In this document: positions 14,345-62,400 of the stretch, one piece after another | Layout: each line of letters starts with the position of its first letter | How positions within the stretch are numbered: the stretch's first letter is position 1 | IMG/VR virus record: IMGVR_UViG_3300037455_000402 | Coordinates: 10,951 to 74,950 of that record | Strand: one strand, 5' to 3' | DNA: 64,000 nt | From: a virus | Lineage: Duplodnaviria > Heunggongvirae > Uroviricota > Caudoviricetes | Notes under the pieces: generated by a model | What the model was told of the DNA's origin: nothing | The model's input: the letters and a program-made list of their open reading frames with translations, nothing else | Databases searched by the model: none | Position numbers and translations under genes: made by a program

Positions 14345-14349
14345 ATATT

Positions 14350-14538: not shown

Positions 14539-14556
14539 TTTTTATGTGGTGGGACT

Positions 14557-41243: not shown

Positions 41244-41281
41244 ATATTTATATTATATCATAACTTTTTTAAAAAGTCAAG
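41244..41281 (-). promoter_or_regulatory. consensus promoter TTGACT-N17-TATAAT (drives tRNA-Gly/Leu segment)
   Basis: TTGACTTTTTAAAAAAGTTATGATATAAT. Confidence 0.65.
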
Positions 41282-41284
41282 ATT

Positions 41285-41470: not shown

Positions 41471-41483
41471 TAAATCTCCTTTC

Positions 41484-41705: not shown

Positions 41706-41714
41706 AACTCCTCC

Positions 41715-42626: not shown

Positions 42627-42652
42627 ATTTAATGTCTCCTTTCTCTTAACTT

Positions 42653-42689
42653 TCTATAATAATTATATCAAAAAATTAAGAAAAAGTCA
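42653..42689 (-). promoter_or_regulatory. consensus promoter TTGACT-N16-TATAAT
   Basis: TTGACTTTTTCTTAATTTTTTGATATAAT. Confidence 0.65.
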
Positions 42690-42696
42690 AGATTTT

Positions 42697-43848: not shown

Positions 43849-43860
43849 TTATATTCTCCT

Positions 43861-44739: not shown

Positions 44740-44860
44740 TAGTCATTTACCTCCTCATCATCGTCAGTTGTGAACTCGACCTCAACGTCAATGTTCTCGT
44801 CGCCAAAAGATGGCTTAGTTGCATAATCGTTAGGATTAATATTTGCAGGTGCTCCCATTA

Positions 44861-45970: not shown

Positions 45971-46044
45971 ACTTACACCTTCTGGTTCCACTCTCGCTAT
46001 CCTCCTTTTCAAATTTCTCTTTATACGCCTTTTAGGAGGTCTCA

Positions 46045-46950: not shown

Positions 46951-46965
46951 TCCTCTCTTTTAACT

Positions 46966-47003
46966 TTCTATAAATATTATAGCATAATTTTTATTTAAAG
47001 TCA
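46966..47003 (-). promoter_or_regulatory. consensus promoter TTGACT-N17-TATAAT
   Basis: TTGACTTTAAATAAAAATTATGCTATAAT. Confidence 0.7.
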
Positions 47004-47219
47004 AGATTTCTTATTTTTAAAATTAACCGAAAAGCTTATCCCAAGGTATCATACCCCAAGTCATGCCAGCTACGAAGCAACCCCCGCCGAACCAGTCAAT
47101 TTTTCGTCCTTTCTCTGCGTCAATCTTATAGGCTATATGGCTCATAAGAGTAAAGATTATAACGCAGACAACAATTTCAATTATTGTACTTGCCATAAAA
47201 TCTTTCCTTTCGTTTTATT

Positions 47220-47257
47220 ATGTATATATTATATCAAAAATTTTAGAAAAAGTCAAG
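47220..47257 (-). promoter_or_regulatory. consensus promoter TTGACT-N17-TATAAT
   Basis: TTGACTTTTTCTAAAATTTTTGATATAAT; drives a ~50-aa membrane peptide ORF at ~47040-47197. Confidence 0.6.
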
Positions 47258-47768
47258 AATTTTCATCGGTCATAAATTCATAACAATCTATAACCTTCTG
47301 AGTTACCTTTAATTCATAAAACTCATTGACGTAATAATCATTCTCGCCCCAAGAGCCTCGCTGTATCGGAATACCATAAAGCTTGCCTGTAACAGGGTGC
47401 TTGAAAACTCTTGTGATATATTCCCAGCCTTTATAAATATCGAAATCGTCTGTTACTTCATCATCAGAGTTACAGATAAAATCTCCGCCGTCAATCATAT
47501 CACGGATAAAATCAGTATCATAAGGACACTCTTCCTTATCTTTATCCTTCTTCTTGTTATTTTCTGCTGTCCAAACGATGAAGTCCCAGATATAAGCGTC
47601 CCAAGCATCTACGAAATCCTGCTCGTCATCTCCTACGCCGAATGGATAATTACCACTCTTCTGAAATGCCTTAATCTCTTCTATACTGGTCATAGAAACA
47701 AGTGACCCGTCTTTTCCTGTAAAAGTAAAAGGGATATAAACTGTATTTTCCATATTAACTCCTTTCAA
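47253..47768 (-). CDS. hypothetical protein (171 aa)
   Basis: ORF track. Confidence 0.5.
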   Translation of the reverse strand: MKGVNMENTVYIPFTFTGKDGSLVSMTSIEEIKAFQKSGNYPFGVGDDEQDFVDAWDAYIWDFIVWTAENNKKKDKDKEECPYDTDFIRDMIDGGDFICNSDDEVTDDFDIYKGWEYITRVFKHPVTGKLYGIPIQRGSWGENDYYVNEFYELKVTQKVIDCYEFMTDENS

Positions 47769-48100
47769 ACTTCGTCGTACATAGGTGCATATTTACGAAT
47801 GTGATTGTGAATGACAACGCCAAGCAACTTTTCTTCGCCGCCTTGCGTTATAACATAAATGTAGCCTCTATCGGTGGTAACTGAACCTCTACCCCTTGGG
47901 TAAGTGAACTTCTTTGCCGCAGTCTCTACAGCCGCGAGGTCAATAGTATTCAGTTCCATTCTGCCGCTATTTGTAATAATAACAAATGTTGACATACCAT
48001 TTTTAAGAACGGGATTGGTATCAATAAGACGACCGCACCATTTAACATCATACTCTTCCCACTGTCCAGTGACAATAAGGTGAGTTTTAATCATAGGCAT
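47765..48100 (-). CDS. hypothetical protein (111 aa)
   Basis: ORF track. Confidence 0.5.
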   Translation of the reverse strand: MPMIKTHLIVTGQWEEYDVKWCGRLIDTNPVLKNGMSTFVIITNSGRMELNTIDLAAVETAAKKFTYPRGRGSVTTDRGYIYVITQGGEEKLLGVVIHNHIRKYAPMYDEV

Positions 48101-48438
48101 TTCAATCCCTCTCTTTCTGCGTCAATAATTGGGAGTGAGCAATAACGCTCGTCATGAATGATTTCTTCATCACTCATTACTTCATACCAGCCGCGTTCGT
48201 TTTTCTTTGTAAGCATATACTTTTTAATAGCAACCTTACCGCAAACAGTACAACGCTTACCGAGCATAAGATGCTTCCAAGTCTCTCCATTTGAAAGAAT
48301 ATAATTAGTAATAAGAATATCTTCGTAAAGATGTTTATGATTTGACCTCTTAGGAGCAACTCTTTTTGAAATAGACTTACCAGTACAAGCACCATCATTC
48401 TGTGGCTTATTTGTCTTTTTGAAATCTGCTTTACCCAT
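48091..48438 (-). CDS. hypothetical protein (115 aa)
   Basis: ORF track; AAGGAAGTGAGCGTATG RBS. Confidence 0.5.
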   Translation of the reverse strand: MGKADFKKTNKPQNDGACTGKSISKRVAPKRSNHKHLYEDILITNYILSNGETWKHLMLGKRCTVCGKVAIKKYMLTKKNERGWYEVMSDEEIIHDERYCSLPIIDAEREGLKCL

Positions 48439-48460
48439 ACGCTCACTTCCTTTTCTTAAT

Positions 48461-48498
48461 TTCTATATATATTATACTAAAAAATTAAATAAAAGTAA
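48461..48498 (-). promoter_or_regulatory. consensus promoter TTTACT-N17-TATAAT
   Basis: CTTTACTTTTATTTAATTTTTTAGTATAAT. Confidence 0.65.
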
Positions 48499-48507
48499 AG
48501 ATTTCAA

Positions 48508-48536
48508 CAAATAAAAATGCCGCCAAAGTAAGGCGG
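48508..48536 (-). terminator. rho-independent terminator
   Basis: TCGCCGCC-TTACTTT-GGCGGCA then TTTTT on minus strand. Confidence 0.55.
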
Positions 48537-48570
48537 CGAAATATACTATTTAAATATACGCGCACGGGCG

Positions 48571-48606
48571 CACGTGATTTTAACATAAATTTTTATAAAA
48601 GTAAAG
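48571..48606 (-). promoter_or_regulatory. promoter-like element TTTACT-N17-TAAAAT immediately upstream of a GC-rich palindrome
   Basis: CTTTACTTTTATAAAAATTTATGTTAAAAT; followed by CACGTGCGCCCGTGCGCG inverted repeat then terminator. Confidence 0.35.
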
Positions 48607-48608
48607 AT

Positions 48609-49016
48609 TTAATCAAACGCTAAAGGTTTAACTTCATTAACTTTATTTTTTAAATGTTCTCTGAGTTCGTCCTCGCTCATCATGTCCTCATAATACTGAT
48701 TGACAGTCTGAGGCATTTCATCTTCACTTGGAAAATCCCAGCTTATGACAAAAGCATCCTTCTTAAGTGGAGAGCCTTTTATATTAAAGCCCTTCTCTTT
48801 AAGAAATTTCAAAACCTGAAATTCACATTTAAGTTTTCTAACCGTAAAACAATGATTTCCAAGTCTTACAGCATCAAGCATAAGGTAATAGCAAAGAGCA
48901 ACCTCATACTCGAAGATAGCCGCCTCTAAATTTTCTGAATTAATTTTATCAGCTTCAGGAAATTTATTTATATCAAACTCGTTCATCTTACTGCTCCTTA
49001 TAAATCCATACGACAT
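48609..49016 (-). CDS. hypothetical protein (135 aa)
   Basis: ORF track. Confidence 0.5.
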   Translation of the reverse strand: MSYGFIRSSKMNEFDINKFPEADKINSENLEAAIFEYEVALCYYLMLDAVRLGNHCFTVRKLKCEFQVLKFLKEKGFNIKGSPLKKDAFVISWDFPSEDEMPQTVNQYYEDMMSEDELREHLKNKVNEVKPLAFD

Positions 49017-49296
49017 CTCTGGTTCTTAGCATATAAATCTGATTAATCTTAAACTTCTTGGGCTCCTCATTAACAATTTCAATTGTTCTGGTCTTGCCCT
49101 CAGCAATTTCAGCTCTAACGCTCTCTCTCAACTGCTTAGCGTTACCCTTAACCCACTCAGAATTAAGCACCTTATATGCAGGACCGTCCTCAGTTTCCTG
49201 CTTTTCAAGTGTAGTAACCTTCATTCTGAACTTTGCCTTTGGATAGATGTTCTCGTCCTTAAGCTCATTGAGTGTACTTGTGTTTGGTAATTTCAT
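48988..49296 (-). CDS. hypothetical protein (102 aa)
   Basis: ORF track; AAGGAGGAATAGAGTATG RBS. Confidence 0.5.
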   Translation of the reverse strand: MKLPNTSTLNELKDENIYPKAKFRMKVTTLEKQETEDGPAYKVLNSEWVKGNAKQLRESVRAEIAEGKTRTIEIVNEEPKKFKINQIYMLRTRDVVWIYKEQ

Positions 49297-49311
49297 ACTC
49301 TATTCCTCCTT

Positions 49312-49701
49312 TTAATCCCAAAGGAAACCATGCCATTCGGCAAACAGTTTAAACCCTTTGTCAATAATCTTTTGCTGTTTTTCGTCGGGCATAAATTCTG
49401 TACAATACAAATAAAATGCCCTAATCATTTTATCAACGATATTATCCCAAGCCCTTTTAGCTTTGGCATCATTTTTATCATAACGCCAATAAATAACCCC
49501 AGGGATGCCGCCTGCTGCTTCACGATAATGAACAAGTCTTACTAAAGTAAAGTAAGCAATTTCAAAATCTAAATTCCAAATGTCCTCATAGTGGAAGCCC
49601 CACTTCTCGAAGAACTCCTAAGAATGATAGCCAGCGCTGGTCTACCAACAAGGCTTGGCACAGTTAATTGCTCTTCTTAAAGTAATTTTATTCTTCTTCA
49701 T
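49312..49701 (-). CDS. hypothetical protein with two in-frame TAG codons (129 codons)
   Basis: GGAGTGAGGGAATG RBS; MKKNKITLRRAINCAKPCW-TAG-TSAGYHS-TAG-EFFEKWGFHYEDIWNLDFEIAYFTLVRLVHYREAAGG...; ends TAA. Confidence 0.45.
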
Positions 49702-49788
49702 TCCCTCACTCCTTTACAAGATAACGCAAATCTCTTAGGAGCATTCCTAAAAGAAATAAAATTATAGCAAAATATTTAAGCATATTTA

Positions 49789-50043
49789 TCACTTGTGAAT
49801 AAAGTTTCCGTCGTCTGCTGCAGTCTCAATCCAAGTCTCAAGCTGTGAGTAGCAATCCTTCTCAGTCTCAACCCAAATCTCCTGCCACTCTGTCATAGCG
49901 AGCATACAGCCCATTATAGATTTTCCATTAACACACTGACGTCTGGACCCATCAGTGAGATATACGTCTCCTACACATTTTGATGCCGCCAAACAGAAGG
50001 CGAGTGCGTCCTGCTCTCCAATTAATAAAAGTCTATTTCTCAT
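49789..50043 (-). CDS. hypothetical protein (84 aa)
   Basis: ORF track. Confidence 0.45.
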   Translation of the reverse strand: MRNRLLLIGEQDALAFCLAASKCVGDVYLTDGSRRQCVNGKSIMGCMLAMTEWQEIWVETEKDCYSQLETWIETAADDGNFIHK

Positions 50044-50160
50044 AAAAATAACACTCCTTTTTTATAATTTTCTTTTTTTTCATACGATTTTTTTCATTTT
50101 TTTCAAATGAGCTGCAAAATGAGCTACGAAATGAGCTGCGTTTTGCCGCAGGAGCTGCGT

Positions 50161-50427
50161 TTAGAAGTCTTGAACTTTGAGCCACACAGACCTGCCATCT
50201 CTCTTAACATAGTAAGTGTTAAGTTCCATTTCTCTTGGAGGATAGTCGTCAACCAATTTTACTCGGAAGCCGTCAATTGTTGTCTCCTTGAAAAACTTCT
50301 TCTTTGATTTCTTGAATATAGTCTCTTTCTCTTCGCCATATTCGTTGACAACGCATAGCATTAGATGAAAGGATGACTTTACAGTATTTTCAAATATAAC
50401 TCTTGCAGGACTAATCATTCTATTCAT
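50161..50427 (-). CDS. hypothetical protein (88 aa)
   Basis: ORF track; promoter 50437-50474 upstream. Confidence 0.5.
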   Translation of the reverse strand: MNRMISPARVIFENTVKSSFHLMLCVVNEYGEEKETIFKKSKKKFFKETTIDGFRVKLVDDYPPREMELNTYYVKRDGRSVWLKVQDF

Positions 50428-50436
50428 CTCCTTTAC

Positions 50437-50474
50437 TATAATATAATTATATCAAAACTTAAAAGAAAAGTCAA
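50437..50474 (-). promoter_or_regulatory. consensus promoter TTGACT-N17-TATAAT
   Basis: TTGACTTTTCTTTTAAGTTTTGATATAAT. Confidence 0.7.
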
Positions 50475-50524
50475 GATATAAACAAAAAGAGGGACTAAAG
50501 CGCCCCTCTTTAAATTATTACAAA

Positions 50525-51250
50525 TTAGTGTTCGTCTGTACCAGGAATAGCAGCGTTAGGTGTAGGTGTATCACCAGAAACCTCGTCATAGAGAGCGGCT
50601 GTTACAAGCTCAATCTCCTTACGTACTCTTGCAAGCTCAGACTGTAAGAAGTCTACAGGGTTCTTAAGAGCAACACGAGTATTAGTATCATCTACAGTGT
50701 AATCTGCAGGGTCAAGTGCCTCAATTGGGTCTCCACAAATAAGATTTGCATACATTCCCTTAGCTGGGTCACCTGCGAAGTCAGTAATCATTTCAGTACC
50801 AAACTGATAACTGTTATTACCAACTGTAAGGATAGCTGGCTTATTCTTCTGCTCGAAGTCCTTAATCATCTGTACAAGTACCTTAGTCTTCTGAGTGAGT
50901 TTAGCGAGTCTCTTAGAGCACTCATCAACCTTCTCAGGCTTTGGTGGTACTGGATAAGGAGGACATGGAGGAGGACATGGAGGGATTGGATGCGGATGTG
51001 GAGGAGGAGGACATGGAGGAATTGGTCCAGGTCCAGGTCTACCAGGAATTGGAGGAGTTGGTACGGGTTCTACATCCCACTCTGGATAAGGTGGGTAGAA
51101 TGGGTAGCCACCCCAATCAATTGGTGGAGGAGGAGGACATGGAGGTACAGGTGGTACTGGCTTTGGTGGTGGTGGAAGAATAGGCTTGCTTGGTACAGCG
51201 TAGTCTACTCCGTCGAAACCAGTTCTCTTGTAAGTACTCATATAATTCAC
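50525..51250 (-). CDS. proline-rich protein (241 aa; PPxP/CPPPP repeats) with globular C-terminal domain
   Basis: ...PPPPKPVPPVPPCPPPPPIDWGGYPFYPPYPEW...PPCPPPPHPHPIPPCPPPCPPYPVPP... Confidence 0.55.
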   Translation of the reverse strand: MNYMSTYKRTGFDGVDYAVPSKPILPPPPKPVPPVPPCPPPPPIDWGGYPFYPPYPEWDVEPVPTPPIPGRPGPGPIPPCPPPPHPHPIPPCPPPCPPYPVPPKPEKVDECSKRLAKLTQKTKVLVQMIKDFEQKNKPAILTVGNNSYQFGTEMITDFAGDPAKGMYANLICGDPIEALDPADYTVDDTNTRVALKNPVDFLQSELARVRKEIELVTAALYDEVSGDTPTPNAAIPGTDEH

Positions 51251-51428
51251 CTCATTTTTGCAAAAATAAATTGGGTCTTAAGCCGCCCAATCGGAGAATT
51301 ATCTTCTCTTAATAGAGGTAGAATTAGAGATAGAAAGGTCTAAATTTTCAGGTATGGGAAAATCTTTTGCTAAAGTTTCGCCGCCATGCGGTAGAAAAAT
51401 CTTTATATAAAAAAAGAAACTTACCCCA

Positions 51429-51770
51429 TTAAAGGGCAGGTCTTAATTCAAGGAAAGGTACCCCGTCAAAATCTGTGACGACATAATAAATCTTTTTACC
51501 ATATTCTTCTGCAATAAGATGTTCTACTTGACATCCACGAGACTTAGCCCAGTCCGTATCAAATACAACTACATCTGCTTTTGACATAATGGTAATAGCA
51601 TGACCGAGACATACCAACGGGTCAACATCCTTTGCTCCTTCTATAAAGGAGTCAAGAATAATCGGTCCATTAAAGGTATCTCCAATTAAGTCGGTAATAA
51701 ATTCACGACGTGCAAGAATCTCTCCCTGAGTTTTGCCATTCATTGGCTGAGAAATAAAATATTTAGTCAT
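51429..51770 (-). CDS. hypothetical protein (113 aa)
   Basis: ORF track; weak resemblance to nucleoside 2-deoxyribosyltransferase-like fold (unverified). Confidence 0.45.
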   Translation of the reverse strand: MTKYFISQPMNGKTQGEILARREFITDLIGDTFNGPIILDSFIEGAKDVDPLVCLGHAITIMSKADVVVFDTDWAKSRGCQVEHLIAEEYGKKIYYVVTDFDGVPFLELRPAL

Positions 51771-52075
51771 TATTCCACCTTCATTTCATATTCTTTACCA
51801 GTTTCTTTGTCTTTAAAAATTACTTTTGTAGTTTTATCGCCTTCTTTTTCTTCAATAATTGTATACTGGTCCCAATCAATTTTATCTGCTTTTGTTGCTT
51901 TAATAAGGTCATGGTCTGTAGTACAACAAATAATAATTATGATTGCTACACCTATTACCATACAACTTAAAATGGTAGTCGCAACTCCATCTTCTTCATC
52001 AAGAGTTAGCATTGCAAATACCGTACAAACTATCATTATAAATAATAAAAATGCTAACAAAGCTATTCCCATCAT
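51770..52075 (-). CDS. membrane protein (101 aa)
   Basis: two hydrophobic segments. Confidence 0.5.
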   Translation of the reverse strand: MMGIALLAFLLFIMIVCTVFAMLTLDEEDGVATTILSCMVIGVAIIIIICCTTDHDLIKATKADKIDWDQYTIIEEKEGDKTTKVIFKDKETGKEYEMKVE

Positions 52076-52626
52076 TCTCCCTCCTCATAATAAAACTCAG
52101 TCTTACAGTATTCACACTTCAAAGTTTCCAAATTAATCTTGCCGCCGCACTGTGGACAAGTTGGAACAGGACGAAGCTTACCGAGAGGTGGCTTAGGCTT
52201 TGGCTCTTCCTTCGGCTTATGTAGCTCCTCTAATTCTTCATATATCCAGACAAGAGCTTCATAATTTAATCCTCTATGACGCATTGAGAGCATATCTACA
52301 AAACAGATATGAATAGGAGTTCCTTCATTCCACTCAAATATACCAATTTTTGTTCTAAGATAATAAAAATCCTCATAAAGAGAAAAAGTTATTACCCTAT
52401 TGTATTTCTGTTCTATAAAAGATTCAGCTTTTATTATTTCATCAATTGGAGAAAAATCTTCATTATACTGGTAATACCAATGCTCACTAAAAGAAAACAT
52501 AGGATAGCCGTGAAATGTTGATATTTGTGGACTATAGTCAGGTTTTGGCTGATGACACTGCGGCATAGGAACATCTACTCTTACATCGGGAATAAAATCA
52601 CTAATCATTTCTTCTTCTCCTTCCAT
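52072..52626 (-). CDS. hypothetical protein with C-terminal zinc ribbon (184 aa)
   Basis: CPQCGGKINLETLKCEYCKTEF. Confidence 0.5.
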   Translation of the reverse strand: MEGEEEMISDFIPDVRVDVPMPQCHQPKPDYSPQISTFHGYPMFSFSEHWYYQYNEDFSPIDEIIKAESFIEQKYNRVITFSLYEDFYYLRTKIGIFEWNEGTPIHICFVDMLSMRHRGLNYEALVWIYEELEELHKPKEEPKPKPPLGKLRPVPTCPQCGGKINLETLKCEYCKTEFYYEEGE

Positions 52627-52835
52627 TTAATAAATCCGCCTACATTTATAATAAAGTAAGCTATATACATAAGCACCATTGGAACATTCATAGGCCCCAA
52701 TAAATTGACACCAATCCATGCGACGTTGCCGCCTATCCAAGCAACCCAGCCGCTACGCTTTTTAAGCATTATTAAAATATTGCCACCTAAGCTAAGGATT
52801 GCTCCAACTATTGAGAGAATTAAAATCCAATTCAT
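52605..52835 (-). CDS. small polytopic membrane protein (76 aa)
   Basis: three hydrophobic segments; promoter 52847-52886 upstream. Confidence 0.5.
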   Translation of the reverse strand: MNWILILSIVGAILSLGGNILIMLKKRSGWVAWIGGNVAWIGVNLLGPMNVPMVLMYIAYFIINVGGFIKWKEKKK

Positions 52836-52846
52836 CTTATCACCTT

Positions 52847-52886
52847 CTATATATTTATTATATCATAAATAATGTAAAAAGTAAAG
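52847..52886 (-). promoter_or_regulatory. consensus promoter TTTACT-N17/19-TATAAT
   Basis: CTTTACTTTTTACATTATTTATGATATAAT. Confidence 0.6.
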
Positions 52887-52897
52887 AGGTTTACTCT

Positions 52898-53257
52898 TTA
52901 AATTCTAAAAGAGTAAACCTCATCTGACTTTGCTGCAATTAGTTGTGTATCTATTGGTGAAATAAATTCATCGACTACCGCCATATCCCAGCGGTCTCCA
53001 CGAGGCATATGGTCTGAGACAATTAAAACTTTAATTATATTACGTTTCTCTTTATCAATCAATTTAACTGTTGTAGAAGAAATAGTACAATCATAGCTTT
53101 TATTCATAGACAAAACTCTGTGGTCTTTTACCATAAAGGCAAGTATCCTATCCCTTGCCCATGTAAAATGTTTCTCATTAGCAACAGCAATACAAGCGGT
53201 AAAATTGTCTTCTGTTAAAAATCTATGAAGTAAAAAATTAATTTCTATATCGTTCAT
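52898..53257 (-). CDS. hypothetical protein (119 aa)
   Basis: ORF track; ATG overlaps TAA of upstream GIY-YIG gene. Confidence 0.5.
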   Translation of the reverse strand: MNDIEINFLLHRFLTEDNFTACIAVANEKHFTWARDRILAFMVKDHRVLSMNKSYDCTISSTTVKLIDKEKRNIIKVLIVSDHMPRGDRWDMAVVDEFISPIDTQLIAAKSDEVYSFRI

Positions 53258-54270
53258 TATGAATTACCTGCCGTACTATTGTATCCCCATGTATTTGCAT
53301 GGTAGAATGAAATGTACTCCTTTTCCTTTCCATTTAATTCGTCAGTATCACATTCAGCAAGAACTTCAAAAGTGAAATTCTCTGCACCCTCTTCCCACAT
53401 TGCATTATAAAGCTTATTAGAAGTACCTGGCTCTGCTTTTACACCACGCTTTAAGTGAGTACGCCAACGTTCCTTAAAAGCCTATTTTGTTTGTCCGATA
53501 TAAACTTTGCCGTTTTCGAGATTGGTGATTTTATAGATACCAGTATTGCCACGTCCAGTAACAACTCGTCCTACCATTTCATTGAATGGACGCTCATAAT
53601 AGTTCTTATAAATTAATTTGTAAAGAACAGAAGGGTCGTGAAGTTCGTCGGCAATTTTGCGAAGCTTCTTAACATCTTCAATATCATTTTCAGAAAGAAC
53701 AATACGATAGAAATTTTTATCTTCTTTAATCTTTTCTGCTCTTTTATATTCCTCAATGATTTCTTGCTATTTAGCTTCAGCAGCCTTGACTTCTTTTTCA
53801 AGTTGAGCCTTTTTAGCTTTCATTTCAACAGAGAAATTCTAAAATTCTTCTGATATGTTAATCTTCTACTGGTCATAATAATCCATTACAGATTGAAGTT
53901 GTAGAGCCCCTTCTTTTGATTTGTTCTGTACCTCAGTAGCAAGTTCTGCCGCCAAAGCTTGGAGCTAATCGTCTCTTCGCTTACGAGCTGCCGCAAGGTC
54001 CATATCTAAATTCTTTATAGATTCTTCAATGGAACGACGCTTTCTCGCTGCTTCTTCTATAGCATTACCGAGTTCAAGTTTAATAGCTAATTCTTCTTCA
54101 CTAATTCTTTTCTTACGCTTAGCTTCGAGAGCCTTAAGAGCTTCCTATTTGGCTGTTTCAAAATCTTTAACTGCCTTTTCAGAAACAGATATCTGCTGGT
54201 GAACGGCTAAACAATAGCCGCCCCAGCCCGCAAAAAGACAACAGATTATAGCAATAAAAATATATCCCAC
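53257..54270 (-). CDS. GIY-YIG nuclease-domain protein (N-terminal TM helix + coiled coil), six in-frame TAG codons
   Basis: single frame from GTG (GAGGTGG RBS) to TAA; C-terminal GIYKITNLENGKVYIGQTK-TAG-AFKERWRTHL...KLYNAMWEEG...NFTFEVL GIY-YIG signature lies downstream of the TAGs. Confidence 0.6.
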
Positions 54271-54281
54271 TATAATCCACC

Positions 54282-54860
54282 TCAGTTTATAAGAAGTTCC
54301 TTTGCCATTGGAAGTGTTTCAATCCAAGCGCAGAACTCTCTCCATTCAGGAAGCCTATGGTTTTTACGCTGTTTATAGATATTTCTAAGACAACGATAGT
54401 TAGTTGTCATTCGAGCAGTAATTCTAAAGCCGCATGGATTGCTGTAGAGAACTCTTAAATAGTTCTCAGGCGTAGGATTTTCAAGATACTCTGCTACAAG
54501 TTCTTTCATTATTACAATCATACGAGGGTCTACATATTCGATATATGCGTCATCAAGTTCAAACTTGGTAATACGATGCATTGTAGACTATGATGATACA
54601 AATTCGAGAAAACGATAACGTTCTGCTTCAACCCAAGCCTTATTGGTAAAAGTTAAGTCAAAGTTGACACGAATACCAGTTAAGAACTATCCGTGTGCCT
54701 AATTATCATTATCAACCGCCTTGATTAAATTCTCTATACGCTTTAAATCTTTGTCGCTTAATATCCTATTATAATCCTACAGTTCAGTTCTCATAGGATA
54801 ACCAGATGCAATTATAGAATTGGTAAGGTCATATACTTCTGCATTATTTACTATACTCAT
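54282..54860 (-). CDS. hypothetical protein with four in-frame TAG codons
   Basis: ATG 54860 overlaps TGA of upstream gene; frame MSIVNNAEVYDLTNSIIASGYPMRTEL-TAG-DYNRILSDKDLKRIENLIKAVDNDN-TAG-AHG-TAG-FLTGIRVNF...FVSS-TAG-STMHRITKFELDD... runs uninterrupted to TGA at 54282. Confidence 0.5.
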
Positions 54861-55180
54861 TTTTCCAAGTGTCCCTCCCTTTTATAATAACCATACTTTT
54901 TGTTTAAAGTAATAATATAACACTTTTGAGTTGAACCCATGCCGCCTTTGCGTCCAGAGTCAGAATAGATATGGTATCCAGCCAACTCAATTTTATCTAA
55001 AAATTCATCTATGCCGTCAAACCAATCTTCTTCCCATAATGTTATACTATCAATTAACCATAGTCTATTTATTTGACTTATAATTTTTTCTTTATATTCT
55101 GCAATGCGTTTAAGCTCCATATCTTTTCTAAGGGCTGGAGCTTTCGCACGTTGCTCTGCGGCAGGCATAATTATACCCAT
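54857..55180 (-). CDS. hypothetical protein (107 aa)
   Basis: ORF track. Confidence 0.5.
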   Translation of the reverse strand: MGIIMPAAEQRAKAPALRKDMELKRIAEYKEKIISQINRLWLIDSITLWEEDWFDGIDEFLDKIELAGYHIYSDSGRKGGMGSTQKCYIITLNKKYGYYKREGHLEK

Positions 55181-55190
55181 TTTACCCTCC

Positions 55191-55433
55191 TTAGGAGTCA
55201 GCTTGCAACCCCTTATAAAAATCTTTTAATTCTTCAAACTCATCGTCGGTTAAACCGAAAACTTCAAAGTAAGAATAGTAATCACAGACGTCAATAGTAA
55301 GCCCGTCTTCGTCATAAATGGTTTCCATTGGGTCTCCTACAAGATTACGGCTATTGAATAGCCCGCAATCATAAGAATTAAAATTTTCCTTAATAATCTC
55401 TTTAGCCTTAGCTAATCTTTCACTTTCGCCCAT
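55191..55433 (-). CDS. hypothetical protein (80 aa)
   Basis: ORF track. Confidence 0.5.
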   Translation of the reverse strand: MGESERLAKAKEIIKENFNSYDCGLFNSRNLVGDPMETIYDEDGLTIDVCDYYSYFEVFGLTDDEFEELKDFYKGLQADS

Positions 55434-55714
55434 TATTCTTCTCCTTTCATTGAAGTAAATACTTCATCCATATTAGTTGCGATTGCATATGTTGATGACT
55501 CACTCCTTGCCATAGGAAGATAAATCATTGCAACGACTGATGCCGGCCACTTCTCAGCTAATGAAAAATCATTAAATGAAATAGCGTCCATATAAAAGTC
55601 CTGTTCAAGTTTATTCGGATAATTTTCAAGAAATTTAACAAATTCCTCTTTAGTACAGGGCTCCCTTTTAGGCTTAATAGTATACTTCTCACCACAATCC
55701 CAATCTTGCATCAT
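55433..55714 (-). CDS. hypothetical protein (93 aa)
   Basis: ORF track. Confidence 0.5.
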   Translation of the reverse strand: MMQDWDCGEKYTIKPKREPCTKEEFVKFLENYPNKLEQDFYMDAISFNDFSLAEKWPASVVAMIYLPMARSESSTYAIATNMDEVFTSMKGEE

Positions 55715-56289
55715 TCTTCTCCTTCTTCCTTAATCTCAGAACGGGTTTCTTTGCCGTCTTCCATAGCATCCCACTCTTTTAATCTGTCAAGTGTGTCAAT
55801 AAGTTCATCTGTATTAAGAGGATTATAACTCCATTTCGCCGCGTCAGCAGAGAGCATAATACCATTATATAATCCGTCAAAAGGATTTTCACTATCTGTT
55901 ACAAGTAAAGTATATGTCTTTGCATAATCAGACTGAGCCTCTACCTTCTTAATTACATAGAGAACCTCTCTACCATCAGGATATGTATGGAACATAGATA
56001 CGCCCCAGAAATGTTTAAAGCCTATCTCTCTCCATTCCTTCTTGGTAAATTTATCATTTAAATGTCTTGAAGTTGCTATCTTTTCTCCGTTTAATTGAGA
56101 AATAACTTCCTTCATTTCTTCTAATTTGCCGCTGCCTATATTTCCCATTATAATAACAGAGTCTTCAGGCTTGACAACTTTGTTCCAAGAACGAACAATC
56201 CAGTTATTCATTGCGGCAAAAGAGGGAAAGCCAAGCTTATCCCTCTACTCATTATCAAATAGCCTTAAATCTGCTATGATATATGTTGC
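55711..56289 (-). CDS. hypothetical protein; probable TTG start with one in-frame TAG upstream of the first ATG
   Basis: GAGGT RBS + TTG at ~56289; LATYIIADLRLFDNE-TAG-RDKLGFPSFAAMNNWIVRSWNK...; ATG at 56211 has no RBS. Confidence 0.35.
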
Positions 56290-56306
56290 CAATTACCTCA
56301 CCTCAA

Positions 56307-56600
56307 TTAATCCTTTGACTTAGTAGTAGTAACTGAGTTCTTGAAAAGCATACCGCAAAGAATATCAAGTCCAGCAAACTGCCAGAAAGTTAAATGGAGT
56401 GCGGTAAATCCCCATACGGTGCAAAGGATATAATTCCAAAGAAGCATACCAATCCACCAACCGAGACAAGCCAAGCCGAAACAGATACCAAGAACAAGAA
56501 GAATTATCAGGAATATACCAAATGCTCCTATAGACTCGTCCTTTGCCTTACTAAGTTCCTTTTCTAAACTACCTAATGCGCTCTGAATTAACATATTCAA
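56307..56600 (-). CDS. membrane protein with 3 TM segments (holin-like)
   Basis: GIFLIILLVLGICFGLACLGWWIGMLLWNYILCTVWGFTALHL; consensus promoter 56632-56669. Confidence 0.45.
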   Translation of the reverse strand: MNMLIQSALGSLEKELSKAKDESIGAFGIFLIILLVLGICFGLACLGWWIGMLLWNYILCTVWGFTALHLTFWQFAGLDILCGMLFKNSVTTTKSKD

Positions 56601-56631
56601 AGTCCTCCTTTTATTTATTTTCTATAATTAT

Positions 56632-56669
56632 TATATCATAATTGTAATCAAATGTCAAGTTTTTAATAA
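56632..56669 (-). promoter_or_regulatory. consensus promoter TTGACA-N17-TATAAT
   Basis: TTGACATTTGATTACAATTATGATATAAT. Confidence 0.7.
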
Positions 56670-56803
56670 TAAAAAAGAGTAGTCAATGACTACTCCTTTC
56701 GTTTGCGTGTTCCCATTTCGATATTTTCTGTTTTTGCCTTTTTACTTTTCTCGCTTACGCAATTGAGTTGCCAAGTCAATCACATATCTTTTCTAATGGG
56801 GTA

Positions 56804-57667
56804 TTAGATAGTACGGAAATAGTTTCTTTGACCATCACCGGACCATTGATTGCAAGTCCAGCCTGCAAATGCTTGTGGGTTATTAAAGTAATAATCCACC
56901 GCGTCAGACATTGCCGAATAATGAACTGAGCCGCCGCAGTAGTATTCTGCATATTTATTGAATCCCCAAGGTGCGCAAGTCTGGTCCAGTACGCCCTCGA
57001 CTGTGCCAGGCCAACGTGAGTCATTCACCATATTCATTACAGATGCTACTATCTTAGCTCTCTCATATGTATCTGCCATGCCGCCATACTCACTTGCGAC
57101 AATCTTGCAAAGCAATGTATAATCGTACTCGCTAACTGAAGGAGTAACATTGCTTATTGGTTCTACATATTCATTAATAACTTTTAAATCGGGTTTACAT
57201 TCGCTACAAATTCTACACTCAATATTCTCTGTATTCTCAATCTCAATAACTTCGCCCTGCTTTGCCCAGTGACAAGTAGAGCGGTGTATATAGTGTGTGT
57301 TTGGTTTAAACACAACAAATTCTCTTTCAGGTTCTGCCGTCTCTGGAGCCGCAACAGTAGTCTCGGCATCTGCTACTGTAGTCGAAACCTCTTCTGTTAC
57401 CACTGTTGTAGTAGTAGAAGAAAGTGTAGTTGATGTGCTTGTGGTTGTAGAAGTTGTGGATGTGCTTGTGGATGTTGAAGTAGTACCTGTTGTTACTGTG
57501 GTAGAAGTTTCTAATGTAGTAACTACTGCCGCCTTAACAGGAAAATCTACTCCGTGTGCTGTCCCACCGTCCGTATGTACAGTATGCGGTGTGGCAAAAC
57601 AAATTACGACAGCAGATGCGAATACTGCTGCCGCAATCTTAATTGATGTTTTAAGCTTCTTATTCAT
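56804..57667 (-). CDS. secreted cell-wall hydrolase, SleB/hydrolase_2-like C-terminal domain, Ser/Thr-rich linker
   Basis: signal peptide MNKKLKTSIKIAAAVFASAVVICFA; linker TTSTSTSTSTTSTTT; C-terminal ...LLCKIVASEYGGMADTYERAKIVASVMNMVNDSRWPGTVEGVLDQ...APWGF. Confidence 0.55.
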   Translation of the reverse strand: MNKKLKTSIKIAAAVFASAVVICFATPHTVHTDGGTAHGVDFPVKAAVVTTLETSTTVTTGTTSTSTSTSTTSTTTSTSTTLSSTTTTVVTEEVSTTVADAETTVAAPETAEPEREFVVFKPNTHYIHRSTCHWAKQGEVIEIENTENIECRICSECKPDLKVINEYVEPISNVTPSVSEYDYTLLCKIVASEYGGMADTYERAKIVASVMNMVNDSRWPGTVEGVLDQTCAPWGFNKYAEYYCGGSVHYSAMSDAVDYYFNNPQAFAGWTCNQWSGDGQRNYFRTI

Positions 57668-57764
57668 TAAAATTCCTCCTTTTCGTCCTTATGGACTATG
57701 AGGGGAACACGCATTTGTGTAGCGAAAACGCTACAATTATATGTAGAAATTACTAAGGAAAAGT

Positions 57765-58274
57765 CTAAAATTTATCATCTTCATTAAGATAGATATAATG
57801 AATAATAATTAAATCGTTCTTAATGATAGCCATAAATCCAGACACTCCCAAATAATTCTCATCAAATAAATGAACAATACAAGTTGTATTGTAAGATAAA
57901 GAATAATGATAACGTATAAGACCTTCAATTTGAAATTTCCAGTCTAAAGTCAATTTGCCTTTGGTTTTGTCAAAATATTCGCTTAATAGAAGCACAGCGT
58001 CTTCAAAAAGAATACCATAATTACTTAATTCAAAAATCTTGCCGCGACTTAATATGGGAACATCAGAGCTTGTAATTGCATTTTTGCCCCTTAAATTCTC
58101 TCTATGCCGAGGACTTATTGAACTAATGTAATCAAAACATCTATCAAGGACTTTCTCCATATCTGATTTAGATAAAGAGAAATAGTCATTTATCATTTTA
58201 TTAAATACTTTGACAAGTTTTTCAGGCATTGCTACTTTCTTATTATCATCTTCATAAATAGTAACGAGGCCCAT
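57765..58274 (-). CDS. hypothetical protein (169 aa)
   Basis: ORF track; AGGGGTGATAAGATG RBS. Confidence 0.5.
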   Translation of the reverse strand: MGLVTIYEDDNKKVAMPEKLVKVFNKMINDYFSLSKSDMEKVLDRCFDYISSISPRHRENLRGKNAITSSDVPILSRGKIFELSNYGILFEDAVLLLSEYFDKTKGKLTLDWKFQIEGLIRYHYSLSYNTTCIVHLFDENYLGVSGFMAIIKNDLIIIHYIYLNEDDKF

Positions 58275-58285
58275 CTTATCACCCC

Positions 58286-59383
58286 TTAGAAGGTAATTAC
58301 TTTCTTACTTGACTTACTGAAAACATTACCAGCCTTGGTATTATTGCTATTTGATTTGCCGCGATGAGTCTTAATAGTTGGACACCAGTATAAAGAATCC
58401 TTTGAACGGGTGGCGGCAACATAACAAATTCGTCTCTCTTCCTGACTAAATGTCTTTGCGCCAACGACAACTACATAAGGAAATTCAAGTCCCTTAGCAG
58501 AATGAATTGTCATTATTTTAACCTTATTTTCTTCGAGCAAATGCCCCATCTGTTCAAGGTCAAGGTCTCCACGTTTAACAATTACATTCGGAACTCCGAT
58601 TTTATTTAAATACCTTTCAGCTTCTTCAATTTCAGAATTGGCTCTACAAAGTACGGCCCAACCTGTCCAATCTTTTGTCCAAGTCATCTCTTCTGCCGCA
58701 TCAGCAAAAGAACAATTCTTATCTAAGAATCCCTGCTTTGTAAGTGTTGGTATTGCACAAGGTGAAATCTTAGGCATTGAATTTAAATAGTCATCGGCAT
58801 AACGAATAATGTTTGGTGGGTTACGATAGTTTTCTACAAGAAAATACTTTTTAAATGTAGGGTCTTCTGCAACTTCTCTGATAAATTTATCAGAAGCGCC
58901 GCGGAAGGAGTAGATAAACTGTCTTTCATCACCAACATAGAAACGATTTTCCGCTGGTATGCGAAGTATAAAATTGTATTGTAAAGGGTCTGTATCTTGG
59001 AACTCATCTACAAATAAGTAAGCAACCTTTGGATAAATTGAAGGCGGAACTGTTACAGCCTTTGATATAATTTTATCAAACTGCTCTTCCGCAATATCTC
59101 CATAAGTAGGAATGTTTGCAAGATTACAAATTTTATTTGCATAAGAGTGAATTGTTCCGATGAACATTCCTTCACATTTTTCACCAAGTCTCTTTCTCAT
59201 TTCCTCCGCCGCCTGATTGGTGAAAGTAAAAGCGACAATAGAAGAGGGCTCAACGCCCTCATCTAATAGTCTATTAACTCTTGCAATTAAGGTAGCAGTT
59301 TTACCACCAGCCGCACACGCAAGACAGAGGATATTTTTTTCTTTTGAATTTATAATGTTCTACTGTCGAATGTTGTATTCCAT
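58286..59383 (-). CDS. UvrD/Rep-family helicase-like protein (compact, ~365 aa) with in-frame TAG at codon 8
   Basis: GGAGGACTGCGTATG RBS; MEYNIRQ-TAG-NIINSKEKNILCLACAAGGKTATL (Walker A) ... VDEFQDTDPLQ (motif II) ... TIHSAKGLEF (V) ... VAATRSK (VI). Confidence 0.6.
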
Positions 59384-59407
59384 ACGCAGTCCTCCTTTTC
59401 TTTCGAA

Positions 59408-59445
59408 CTACATATATTATATCATAAAATTTTGAAAAAGTCAAT
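59408..59445 (-). promoter_or_regulatory. consensus promoter TTGACT-N17-TATAAT
   Basis: TTGACTTTTTCAAAATTTTATGATATAAT. Confidence 0.7.
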
Positions 59446-59447
59446 AA

Positions 59448-62400
59448 TTAAACGATATATTTACAAGTATCACTCGTAGGCCAATATAATGGTGTTGAAC
59501 CATGGAAATGTGCAGCGTGCTAATTTTCACAGTTAGCTATTTTGCTCATAATATTATCTGGTGATTCAGAATAAGTGTGTGTCTAATCATTATATACAAC
59601 TGGCTATTGGAAACCAGTACAGCTATGAAGATAGGCAATATTTGCCCTGTTATTAAATGTATCTACCGCAGCTGTACTATCTGTTTGTACAATTTTACCA
59701 TGCACGCTGGTATCTTGTCTATAGCCATTTGTCATATCAATACTAATACGAGCATCAGAAACCTAAGAAGATGTTGAGTTAAATATTTCACCAGTACAAT
59801 TATCATGATTAAATCTATTTACATCAAAATACTTAATATTGCCTATGAATTTAGCAATAAAGGTTGCAGTATAACGAGACATACCATCCGGTTGAGAAGC
59901 GCCTCCATTAATATCAATACGGTAACAAGAGTTTCCACTCTTATCATTTATAACGTAAAACTGTCTCCAACGACCACCATCAGTGACATAGTATAAAGTT
60001 GGGCTATCTCCATAATTGTAGAAATAACCTTCATATCTTCCTATCGGTGCGCACATTACAATTTTACCGAGTACAGTATCTCCAACTTTAACTTCGGGGT
60101 CTCCATCTGCTGTTTCGCCAGGGGATAACTATCCTGCCTATGGAGATATAGAACTCATGTTAATATTGTTATAAGCATTTATATATCCAGACAAATCATT
60201 CTTATCATCAGAGGCATCTAATCCAGTTAAACTTTTAACTGACGGAATATAGAAATACATTGCATGAACTAATGAGCTATCCCAATAAACGTCGCCCCAA
60301 CCTGTAGAACCTTCATTTGTTCTTCCGCCGCCTTGCCAAGGAGTCAAACCAACTGTTGTAACAAAAAAGGCTGGGTTCTTGGAAATATCCTTATTTGTGC
60401 CATAATAAGCTTTAATGAAATTCTTTACTGCTACAAGTCCATCATAGTTCAATGTTGCAGTAGTAGGATATTTACAAGATTTTTCTACTGGAGGCTAACT
60501 GTAACAAATATTATTGCCTAATCCACTTGGGCAATTATCTTTTTCACTACCATCGTAAGCTTTATTATAGGTATCCCATCTGAAACGATAATATCTGGTG
60601 TTTGTATTTGCAGAGTTATATACTCTTGTTTTAGTAACATTGCCTCTCATTGAAGTAAATTTATAAGTTGAACCAGCTTTTACAGAAGACATTGTAAAAG
60701 CAGTATCGCCGCCGTTATCTGTTGGTAAATAGTTTCCTATCTTTAATACATAAGCGTTATCAGTAAATAGGTTTTCAGAAGATGTTTCTTCTGCAGTTTT
60801 CTTCTTCCATGAAACTGTTTCACCCATATAGTATCCCTATCTATTTATGCCATAGTCACAAACATGAATTCCCTAATCATAAACAAGAGGTACATCTAAA
60901 TCAGTGGTAAAGCCAAAAGTGCTTGTTCTCTATGTCTAATTATTGTAAGTATAATAACCGAGAGGAGTAGTTGGCTGTCCAGCCATACCACTATCATCAA
61001 CAAGTTTTCTTGCGGCATCTTCAATAATAAAATAATTACCTTGAGAACTTCCAGTTGAAATTGTTATTTTTCCTTCATCGTCACGACTAAATGAATTAAA
61101 GAAAGGAGTAATTCTTAAATTACCATAACAAGTTTTCTTTTTTCCATCGGGACTTACTACAACCTAAGCTTTATCAAAAGGTCTTAGCCACATTATTCTT
61201 CCATTATAGTCCTGATTTGTACCATAAATAAAAGGAGAAAATCTCTTCTGTCCATTTTTTATGTGTTCATTACGTAATGAAATAACAAAAGCATATTCGT
61301 CTTCGCCATTTCTCTCGCAGACTTCTTTAAATTCCCAAGTCTGAGTTTTCTGATAATAAATAAAGAAGCCGGGGTAATAAACGCTACCATAATAATTATG
61401 TTTGTAATTATCAAAACGTAAATAAGGCATTACAACTAAATCCTATTCAGAATACTAATCACAAAGATAACTTAAACGCTTTTCAACGGTTTCTATAAAA
61501 TCATTTTTACTACCAACAAAAGTAACGGTATAGAAACCAGAAGCATCTACAGACCAATGAATTAATTCATCCCATTTATCAAACTTGTCATAATGACGAC
61601 AGTTCTCACTTTCACGTGGCGGCAAAGGAATATGAACAAAACGAATGTCACTCTTTGCTGTTTGATTTATTACGGCAATTTCAGTCCAAAGATAAAGAAC
61701 ATTCTCCCATAACTCTGAGACTTCTCTTGTTAATCCCTAAAGAGTCTTAGGAATTGGACCGTCAGTTCCAAATAGATAATTGCTAATAGCAGAAATAACT
61801 TGTGCGATTACCCAAAAGTTACGGTCTAAATCTTCTATCTCTACTCTGCGGCCGTACTGCGGCATTAAAAGCCTTAACCATTTTTCAATTAAGTCTTCTC
61901 CCTCTGCCTAATCATAAGCTTCACGGGTATATTGCATTGCAGTATCATTCTTTAATATCTCTAAAACTTCGTCTTTCTTTCTTACTTCATCATAGTTTTT
62001 ATCATCAATATTCCACCAAGGGTGAACCCATTCTTCTTCATTAGCTCTTTCTCCAATAGGGAAATTATATCCAGCATCAGAATTTTTAAGGTCAGCTATT
62101 GTAATACTATGTTCCTTAGTATCAAGAGGTAAAAGAATATTATCATTATTATTATCAAAATTATCAATTATATATTGAATAAGTTTCTAAACTGATTCAT
62201 TCCAATATTCATCTTCGCCGCCTTCTATTAAATCAACAATTCCGTCATATAATTTACTAACGAAAATTGGGTCGGTAGAACTACCATGGTCACGATGTAC
62301 GCAATCACAATTCTTTTCAATATAGTCCATTAAAGAATCCTAAGTCATTCCAGTTAAGGGAGAAGGCTCGCCATGGAGTGTGGCGAGCATATTCTTCCAA

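Follow-up and report, generated by a model that had tools for sequence, protein, structure and literature searches.

Genetic code 15, in which TAG is reassigned to glutamine, has been described together with phage-encoded suppressor tRNAs in crAss-like, Lak, Sapphire, Agate, Garnet, Amethyst and Topaz gut phages (Borges et al., bioRxiv 10.1101/2021.08.26.457843). According to the model published for such phages, the early genes are readable in the code of the host and the late, structural and lysis genes become translatable after the suppressor tRNA has been made (bioRxiv 10.1101/2021.08.26.457843). For the Agate phages it was suggested that in-frame stop codons postpone an intron endonuclease (Borges et al., bioRxiv 10.1101/2021.08.26.457843), and for crAss-like phages code 15 has been confirmed by proteomics (PMC9523058). 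Here, a 64,000-nucleotide stretch of DNA from a Caudoviricetes virus (IMG/VR record IMGVR_UViG_3300037455_000402, positions 10,951 to 74,950; hereafter the window) was analyzed, with the focus on a minus-strand gene at 53257-54270 that encodes a protein with a GIY-YIG nuclease domain and contains six in-frame TAG codons. We assign a probability of roughly 0.9 to the reading that the window belongs to a large code-15 phage in which UAG is decoded as glutamine by two tRNA(CUA) of its own, and that the nuclease gene is an intact, selected and conserved core gene for a membrane-anchored, coiled-coil, I-TevI-like GIY-YIG protein, the synthesis of which would depend on suppression.

Six in-frame TAG codons and the suppressor tRNAs

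The gene was compared with five independent assemblies from different samples (L089-L093; ERR11504494, SRR14597531, ERZ1029110, DRR595531 and ERZ28612964) that are 94.6-95.6% identical to it at the nucleotide level, with a 90% identical relative (L084) and with the further diverged orthologs L085, L086, L087, L088 and L002. The gene and its signals are located as follows:

53257-54270, minus strand: nuclease gene, 337 sense codons, GTG start at 54268-54270, TAA stop at 53257-53259
54277-54283, minus strand: ribosome-binding site GAGGTGG, 6 nucleotides 5' of the GTG, overlapping the TGA (54282-54284) of the upstream gene
54145-54147, minus strand: TAG codon 42; TAG in all five strain-level assemblies, GAA in L084
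53965-53967, minus strand: TAG codon 102; CAA/CAG/CAG in L084/L085/L086, TAG in L089-L093
53866-53868, minus strand: TAG codon 135; CAA/CAA/CAG/CAA in L084, L085, L086 and L088, TAG in L089-L093
53839-53841, minus strand: TAG codon 144; CAG in L084 and L089, TAG in L090-L093
53767-53769, minus strand: TAG codon 168; CAG/CAA/CAA/CAG in four orthologs, TAG in L002 and L089, CAG in L090-L093
53482-53484, minus strand: TAG codon 263; CAA or CAG in L089-L093 and in four orthologs, TAG in L085 and L087

An earlier note, made by a model from the letters alone, had described a single minus-strand frame with a GTG start, a GAGGTGG ribosome-binding site, a TAA stop and six TAG codons, and the coordinates agree with it throughout. 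In-frame TAG occurs exactly six times (amino acids (aa) 42, 102, 135, 144, 168 and 263), and in-frame TAA or TGA does not occur at all. TAA and TGA make up 7.5% of the off-frame codons on the same strand, so that ~25 would be expected per 337 codons, and the probability of finding none is ~4e-12. In the standard code, translation would end at codon 42 and yield a 41-aa transmembrane (TM) peptide. Five of the TAG codons lie upstream of the GIY-YIG motif (GIYKITNLENGKVYIGQTK-TAG-AFKERWRTH...NFTFEVL), which is present in the same frame, and the sixth, codon 263, sits inside it (YIGQTK-Q-AFKERWRTH). The position of this last TAG, which the note had assigned to a place normally occupied by N, D, S or Q, fits that description: close homologs all have Q in this column, distant relatives have D (28), N (26), Q (3) or S (3), and the column aligns with D23 of I-TevI. 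Codon 168 falls into a nearly invariant Gln column of the family.

The GTG start is kept together with the ribosome-binding site in all of L089-L093 and is an ATG at the same codon in L084, while the TAA stop and the ATG of the following gene overlap (TAATG). In contrast, the public gene calls for near-identical orthologs (P0002-P0012; L089-L093) begin at codon 27, giving proteins of 311 instead of 337 aa and missing the TM anchor. The locus thereby carries a warning for annotation: standard-code gene callers split the nuclease gene and its neighbors, and code-aware entries start 26 codons late.

All five strain-level assemblies contain the same GTG-to-TAA gene with TAG at codons 42, 102 and 135. 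The 11 TAG differences at the strain level (codons 26, 144, 168 and 263) are without exception exchanges between TAG and CAG or CAA, so that these variants display the swap directly. The note had named TAG codons absent from the raw reads as an outcome that would undo its claim. No support was found for sequencing or assembly errors; five assemblies from unrelated samples share three of the TAG codons, and contigs of relatives from NCBI, ENA, Logan and IMG/VR show the same pattern. The shared TAGs and the TAG-to-CAG/CAA swaps in independent assemblies rule out sequencing error, the probability of which we regard as negligible, and fix the meaning of the codon as glutamine. With glutamine inserted, the predicted tryptic peptides across the TAG sites are DDQLQALAAELATEVQNK (codon 102), EGALQLQSVMDYYDQQK (codon 135), INISEEFQNFSVEMK (codon 144) and QQEIIEEYK (codon 168).

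Orthologs at 90, 68, 67, 55, 51 and 50% identity contain 4, 5, 0, 9, 6 and 4 in-frame TAG codons, respectively, mostly at other positions. Between the window and L084, 9 of the 10 TAG differences in the nuclease gene pair with CAA or CAG, and across the whole TAG-bearing block Gln stands opposite 15 of the 20 TAG sites with conserved flanks. When seven orthologs were considered, Gln accounted for 26% of the TAG partners against a background of 4.2% (6-fold), and in L085 the invariant Q of YIGQT is itself written as TAG. A column-wise count over 63 distant IMG/VR orthologs gave a Gln enrichment of only 2x, the coiled coil aligning poorly at 30-45% identity, and the closer orthologs and strain variants were used in its place. 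UAG could be a sense codon with another meaning, namely pyrrolysine, Glu, Lys or Tyr, since at some TAG positions diverged orthologs have E, K or Y. We consider this very improbable, given that every strain-level difference and three quarters of the conserved-context sites are Gln, and that Lys and Glu remain near background in a protein rich in both.

Coverage of the minus strand by open reading frames (ORFs) of at least 100 aa, a comparison between codes that the note had proposed, gave a clear answer. In the block 53257-64000 coverage was 47% in code 11 and 96% in code 15 (TAG sense), compared with 49% with TGA sense (code 4) and 62% with TAA sense, whereas in the TAG-free block 41000-53256 it was indifferent to the code (81% vs 85%). 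The 37 genes without in-frame TAG all use TAA or TGA as terminator, and TAG is the terminator of none of the genes. The examined relatives are all TAG-recoded, with large proteins carrying 5-21 TAGs, no in-frame TAA or TGA and no called gene ending in TAG. Gene 57750-58274 (minus strand) has two TAGs within its last four codons (...KF-q-TFP-q-TAA, where q is TAG); its orthologs end at the same place, and the terminal TAGs are thus read through. The first of the two aligns with Tyr in L085 and L086.

The same data bear on the possibility that the ORF is a pseudogene in decay, such as a defunct homing endonuclease with nonsense mutations. Such a gene would explain six stop codons under the standard code, and GIY-YIG homing endonucleases often decay. 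However, all six stops are TAG, TAA and TGA are absent although ~25 would be expected, and the TAGs alternate with codons for Gln. Five independent strains and six diverged orthologs keep the frame, its start and its stop, so that the homologs, which the note had thought might prove to be frameshifted remnants, keep the full frame instead. The ratio of nonsynonymous to synonymous divergence (dN/dS) between the window and L084 is 0.054 for the nuclease gene, and the catalytic residues are invariant in 63 members of the family. This dN/dS, together with a ratio of nonsynonymous to synonymous differences (pN/pS) of 0.019 in the nuclease domain (window vs L084), is incompatible with a pseudogene, and we set this explanation aside as extremely improbable, in line with the judgment of the note.

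The window contains 44 genes found by ARAGORN, comprising 43 tRNAs and a transfer-messenger RNA (tmRNA), and two of the tRNAs have a CTA anticodon (bit scores are those of the general tRNA model of Rfam):

14270-14344, minus strand: tRNA(CUA), 52.2 bits, acceptor stem UGCCG.../...CGGCA-A-CCA matching that of tRNA-Gln(CUG) at 9328-9401
13749-13825, minus strand: second tRNA(CUA), 54.3 bits, acceptor stem UUC.../...GAA-A-CCA matching that of tRNA-Gln(CUG) at 9798-9871
14509-14537, minus strand: putative promoter TTGACT-17-TATAAT, a pattern match, upstream of tRNA-Lys, both tRNA(CUA), two tRNA-Ser and the tmRNA

Both tRNA(CUA) share the U1:A72 pair, A73 and the encoded CCA with the two tRNA-Gln(CTG) of the window, which are also their nearest relatives among the window tRNAs. 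They have the appearance of the phage's own tRNA-Gln(CUG) with a mutated anticodon, and from the comparative data we infer that they would be charged with Gln, either by GlnRS or by GluRS together with an amidotransferase. ARAGORN labels the CTA anticodons 'Pyl'; against pyrrolysine, both molecules are ordinary cloverleaves with acceptor stems that match phage tRNA-Gln, and no pyrrolysine biosynthesis genes were seen among the scanned proteins in a search that was not exhaustive. On the sequence data, then, UAG is a sense codon for glutamine in the window phage, the nuclease gene is under purifying selection and suppressor tRNAs are present. The note had called the nuclease gene the clearest evidence for this; the sense reading of UAG is upheld by strains, orthologs, tRNAs and coverage, while 'clearest' is slightly overstated, since the suppressor tRNAs and two neighboring ORFs with 20 and 13 TAGs are no weaker as evidence.

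The tmRNA (13302-13652, minus strand; tag ANDFAFAA; 107.8 bits in Rfam) lies directly downstream of both tRNA(CUA) and is apparently part of the same transcription unit, from the promoter at 14537. A sequence at 13942-14029 (minus strand) was considered as a tRNA-Sec or TGA suppressor and rejected: it scores a sub-threshold 42.8 bits, and its loop CU-UGA-AA identifies it as a class II tRNA-Ser(UGA) missed by ARAGORN. A search with Rfam at E<=1 near the suppressor tRNAs (13200-15100) gave no HDV-like or theta ribozymes (PMC10879173), a negative that counts only if Rfam 15 includes the family. A full-length ROOL RNA (RF03087; 3408-4003, minus strand; 264 bits; model positions 1-574 of 574) is located within the phage tRNA array.

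Domain architecture and family of the predicted nuclease

The protein obtained with glutamine at the TAG sites can be divided into four parts:

54190-54264, minus strand: predicted TM helix, aa 3-27, followed by basic residues
53722-54180, minus strand: helical, coiled-coil stalk of two helices, aa 31-183; the most variable part, with five of the six TAGs and a pN/pS of 0.14
53551-53715, minus strand: family-specific two-helix middle module, aa 186-240 (FYRIVLSE...LHDPSVLYKLIYKNYYERPFNEMVGRVV)
53278-53544, minus strand: GIY-YIG nuclease domain, aa 243-331, catalytic residues conserved

The hidden Markov model search of the code-15 translation that the note had proposed matched Pfam GIY-YIG (PF01541) at aa 243-331 (E=9e-8; 32.7 bits against a gathering score of 22.6), so that the signature it had recognized beyond the TAG codons is indeed in frame. 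Further matches were to PHROG 314, a homing/intron endonuclease family (2.8e-20), and to TIGR01453 (63.3 bits against a cut-off of 56.05, covering only positions 3-87 of 215). PADLOC gave the label 'HEase' by domain matches only, and none of its defense-system models was matched. Of the catalytic positions, G244, I245, Y246, G259, R268, H272 and E316 are kept in 63 of 63 members, Y257 in 62 and N331 as N or S in 62; the R268/H272 region was aligned to R27/H31 of I-TevI. An AlphaFold2 model, calculated from an alignment of 38 sequences headed by the 90%-identical protein P0001 (predicted local distance difference test score 78.7), consists of a TM helix (3-27), long helices (31-120 and 125-183), the two-helix module (194-236) and an alpha/beta domain (244-323). 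The closest structure is the catalytic domain of I-TevI (PDB 1LN0/1MK0), and the alpha/beta catalytic fold of the GIY-YIG superfamily is present.

In 71 of the 72 full-length IMG/VR members, the N-terminus has a hydrophobic segment and then basic residues. This order suggests an N-out, C-in anchor, and the nuclease is predicted to lie on the cytoplasmic face of the membrane. With the middle module as query (aa 169-243), 503 representative clusters were retrieved, nearly all of 300-370 aa and with the module in the same place; the 42 clusters sampled all match GIY-YIG as well, and nothing else of note. The Q-substituted protein found 912 database proteins, most of them full-length at ~336 aa and on contigs of up to 194 kb. 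Two unnamed full-length-like matches came from BFVD. A full-text literature search for phage proteins combining TM, coiled coil and GIY-YIG returned nothing relevant, and a megablast search of 53000-63990 against the 50,697 GenBank phage records of INPHARED gave no match. A characterized protein with this architecture was not found, and there is no Pfam family for it.

The family matches invite the explanation that this is an ordinary free-standing, mobile GIY-YIG homing endonuclease, the production of which is merely postponed by the in-frame stops. The best matches are homing and intron endonucleases (PHROG 314, TIGR01453 and the PADLOC label), the closest structure is that of I-TevI, and the Agate intron endonuclease is a precedent. 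These matches cover only the ~90-aa catalytic domain, however, which is C-terminal here with nothing following it, and Pfam detected no NUMOD, IENR1, helix-turn-helix or other homing-type DNA-binding module in the protein. The protein has instead a TM anchor, conserved in 71 of 72 members, a coiled coil and a private middle module that was coupled to GIY-YIG in all of the 42 clusters sampled. In addition, the gene slot is identical in seven lineages at 50-90% identity, the order being the large proteins, a UvrD helicase, a ~172-aa protein, a lysin-like gene and so on to a 193-aa phosphoesterase, ThyX or its substitute and the nuclease gene. In this check, which covered the seven lineages rather than every member of the clade, the nuclease gene was not inserted in another gene, and it is under strong purifying selection. 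A mobile homing endonuclease therefore appears improbable. Judged by its sequence, the protein is a member of the GIY-YIG superfamily that fails two defining features of classical homing endonucleases; the term 'GIY-YIG nuclease' used in the note holds for the domain, and the typical homing endonuclease it might imply does not (C-terminal domain, fixed slot).

The family also extends over other genetic codes. A crude ORF-coverage test placed ~30 of 79 nuclease-family loci in the standard code. Single calls of this classifier (L004 'TGA-recoded', L086 'unclear') proved unreliable and were rejected, L086 being TAG-recoded by gene-level counts, and TGA recoding was accepted only from explicit cases of in-frame TGA read as Trp. 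In-frame TGA at conserved Trp positions was found in the sister lineages L065, L074, L081, L073, L071 and L069, and in L069 and L071 it includes the motif Trp (ERwREH and KRwKDH), aligned with ERWRTH in the window. A single nuclease family thus occurs in three codes, namely the standard code, TAG=Gln and TGA=Trp.

Putative transcription unit, gene classes and a proposed timing of synthesis

The nuclease gene is one of eight tightly packed genes that probably form one unit: a 97-aa multi-TM holin-like gene, the phosphoesterase gene (one TAG), three small TAG-free genes, a 192-aa gene (four TAGs), the nuclease gene (six TAGs) and a 119-aa gene. The features of the unit and of the adjacent region are:

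56630-56658, minus strand: putative promoter, perfect TTGACA-17-TATAAT, just after a terminator-like hairpin and ahead of the 8-gene unit
56307-56600, minus strand: holin-like gene, 97 aa, multi-TM, TAG-free
54282-54860, minus strand: upstream gene of the same unit, 192 aa, four in-frame TAGs; full-length phrog_6721 match only if read through (E=1.9e-44)
52898-53257, minus strand: downstream 119-aa gene, TAG-free, its ATG overlapping the TAA of the nuclease gene
52886-52921, minus strand: terminator-like hairpin, 14-bp stem and T run, closing the unit after the 119-aa gene
56804-57667, minus strand: probable lysis gene, 287 aa, TM/signal anchor, long Thr/Ser-rich linker, weak SleB-like C-terminus, TAG-free
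59448-62492, minus strand: 1014-aa ORF, 20 in-frame TAGs, likely structural or receptor-binding, of the same TAG-bearing class
62502-63914, minus strand: 470-aa ORF, 13 in-frame TAGs

The promoter at 56658 is conserved at the equivalent intergenic site in five relatives (L084, L085, L086, L002 and L088). The hairpin of the window is shared by L084, and in L085, L086, L087 and L002 a hairpin and T run of unrelated sequence follow the downstream gene or genes. The TAATG overlap makes translational coupling of the nuclease gene and the 119-aa gene possible. The pattern TTGAC[A/T]-17-TATAAT has 22 matches on the coding strand against a single one on the opposite strand, a bias that argues for a real promoter class. 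The copies on the minus strand of the window are at:

59444, 56658, 50474, 47256, 47004, 42690, 41280, 38005, 30444, 20571, 19329, 18820, 17990, 17637, 14537, 11243, 10422, 7392, 6962, 6356, 5678 and 5492

This class serves tRNA arrays, TAG-free genes and TAG-bearing operons alike.

The two large TAG-rich ORFs (59448-62492 and 62502-63914) share 30-42% identity with their counterparts in L084 (2314-5100 and 1-2153), compared with 86-94% for neighboring genes, and from these sequences they are probably hypervariable structural proteins with a receptor-binding role. At the place of the SleB-like 287-aa gene the relatives carry CW_7 or Peptidase_M15_3, and the probable lysis genes point to a Gram-positive host. 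In most relatives ThyX overlaps the start of the nuclease gene by 4 nucleotides (L002 9310-9996; L085 9204-10004); in the window lineage and L084 it is replaced by the unrelated 192-aa phrog_6721 protein and small ORFs. That the 192-aa gene could be a diverged ThyX was rejected, as BLASTP gave no similarity to the ThyX of the relatives and the 193-aa phosphoesterase is the true ortholog of their 192/193-aa gene. A TAG-free gene for a 492-aa DUF2828 + DUF7788 protein (38803-40281, minus strand) has a counterpart near the orthologous region in L086.

The TAG-bearing genes are a distinct class with its own codon usage. Their GC content at third codon positions (GC3) is 0.24, their GAA/GAG ratio 113/24, and Gln is written as TAG 43, CAA 22 and CAG 15 times; in the TAG-free genes the values are 0.39, 208/227 and TAG 0, CAA 18, CAG 124. 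With a GC3 of 0.28, the nuclease gene groups with the TAG-bearing class and not with its TAG-free neighbors. Two codon-usage regimes thus meet in one genome (21388-53257 vs 53257-63914). The TAG-free genes include functions in RNA repair and nucleotide metabolism (Thg1, two RNA ligases, kinase/HD, adenylosuccinate synthetase, NT5C, macro domain and RNase H-like). A TAG-free set for RNA repair and tRNA maintenance was noted at 15875-16399, 17996-18820, 21388-22512, 41715-42626 and 46045-46950; its members are an RNase H-like protein, the tRNA-His guanylyltransferase Thg1, a T4 Rnl1-like ligase, an AAA_33+HD kinase/phosphatase and a PF09414 RNA ligase.

From this arrangement, a timing or lock model can be proposed for the nuclease gene. 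The 8-gene unit and the suppressor tRNA cluster would be driven by the same consensus promoter class. In a host with the standard code, translation would break off at codon 42, leaving only the 41-aa membrane peptide. Six UAGs in series would require six successive suppression events for a full-length nuclease, which would tie its synthesis to the level of the phage suppressor tRNA. The result would be a translational delay of, or a lock on, a potentially toxic nuclease, along the lines that Borges et al. put forward for recoded phages in general, with whose model the distribution of TAG in the window agrees. T4 endonuclease II (EndoII, DenA; PDB 2WSH) is a GIY-YIG enzyme that has no homing function and initiates the degradation of host DNA. 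By analogy, host DNA may be the target here, to which the adjacency of ThyX in most relatives adds a weak hint. Another candidate target is the DNA of competitors as it enters at the membrane, and a lysis-linked role is also conceivable, with the SleB-like lysin gene and the holin-like gene lying 2-3 kb upstream.

Several observations weigh against the reading of the locus as a suppressor-dependent code-15 gene. In a minority of cases TAG is paired with Glu, Lys or Tyr, as ordinary substitution would lead one to expect, and mixed decoding is formally possible. The discriminator of the CUA tRNAs is A73, compared with G73 in E. coli tRNA-Gln, and a release factor or aminoacyl-tRNA synthetase gene was not found among the ~30 window proteins scanned. 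The promoters and terminators are pattern matches, though conserved and strand-biased. Moreover, the L086 ortholog has no TAG in its nuclease gene, the TAGs in the nuclease gene are without positional bias (0.29 vs 0.24 of Gln codons), and TAG positions turn over fast between strains. Because of these last three points, the TAG load may be a property of the gene class and not a dedicated lock.

A further step would be to deny the TAG load any regulatory meaning, TAG being synonymous with Gln and a neutral by-product of AT-biased codon usage. Beyond the three points just named, this agrees with the low GC3 that accompanies TAG and with the share of TAG among the Gln codons of the nuclease gene (6/16), which is similar to or lower than that of neighboring TAG-bearing genes (0.54-0.8). 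In contrast, TAG is absent from ~37 genes despite their 142 CAA or CAG codons, which indicates class-specific use and not genome-wide drift, and the TAG-free gene that overlaps the stop codon of the nuclease gene differs sharply from it. On balance we hold a wholly neutral TAG load to be unlikely, if far from negligible. Returning to suppressor-dependent synthesis, a wider proposal may be made tentatively, as something possible that we would not yet favor: that the protein represents a new membrane-anchored coiled-coil GIY-YIG family, a fixed, non-mobile core gene of many large gut and rumen phages, convergently locked by reassigned stops (TAG=Gln here, TGA=Trp in the sister lineages), with a toxic enzyme acting at the inner membrane face, for example on host or competitor DNA.

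Comparison with known suppressors, GIY-YIG enzymes and recoded phages

The bacterial amber suppressor supE is a tRNA-Gln(CUA). The tRNA(CUA) of the window resemble such supE-type suppressors in having a tRNA-Gln body in which CUG has been changed to CUA, with U35 retained and U1:A72 as in bacterial tRNA-Gln; unlike supE, they are encoded by the phage, occur as two diverged copies and have an A73 discriminator.

Compared with I-TevI, which is mobile and consists of an N-terminal catalytic domain, a linker and a C-terminal DNA-binding domain, the protein of the window carries its catalytic domain at the C-terminus and has fixed synteny. T4 EndoII shares 13% identity with it and is a small, soluble, early enzyme without TM segment or coiled coil, so that a functional analogy between the two is speculative. 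The protein is more interesting than the code in which it is written: the TM coiled-coil GIY-YIG architecture is found in hundreds of large phages, and the three-code family offers a good natural system for asking whether reassigned stops control when dangerous proteins are made.

Among annotated proteins, the one most closely related to the middle module plus GIY-YIG part is a 'hypothetical protein' (OQ749652.1, aa 188-336, 32.5% identity) of phAss-1, the proposed Phassvirus (PMC10607447), a 136-kb human-gut phage with TAG-interrupted ORFs and three suppressor tRNAs. The similarity is distant and there is no match at the DNA level, which places phAss-1 in a different clade.

Set beside the recoded gut phages, the window differs in that no 'code-change module' of release factor or aminoacyl-tRNA synthetase was seen in it. 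It agrees with them in having in-frame TAG in a subset of genes, phage tRNA(CUA) and TAG-free early or auxiliary genes, and likewise in the concentration of TAG in structural and late modules and in the low-GC codon usage that accompanies it. A genome size of ~190 kb, judged from contigs of up to ~194 kb, and the small share of genes that are recoded would be compatible with what is described for the Sapphire clade (201 +/- 22 kb; 26% of genes). The locus is an unusually clean demonstration, in which a single window brings together the recoded gene, its two suppressor tRNAs and the class of TAG-free genes. Every testable feature of code 15 was found, and the recoding of the nuclease gene is established biology of such phages and not a new phenomenon.

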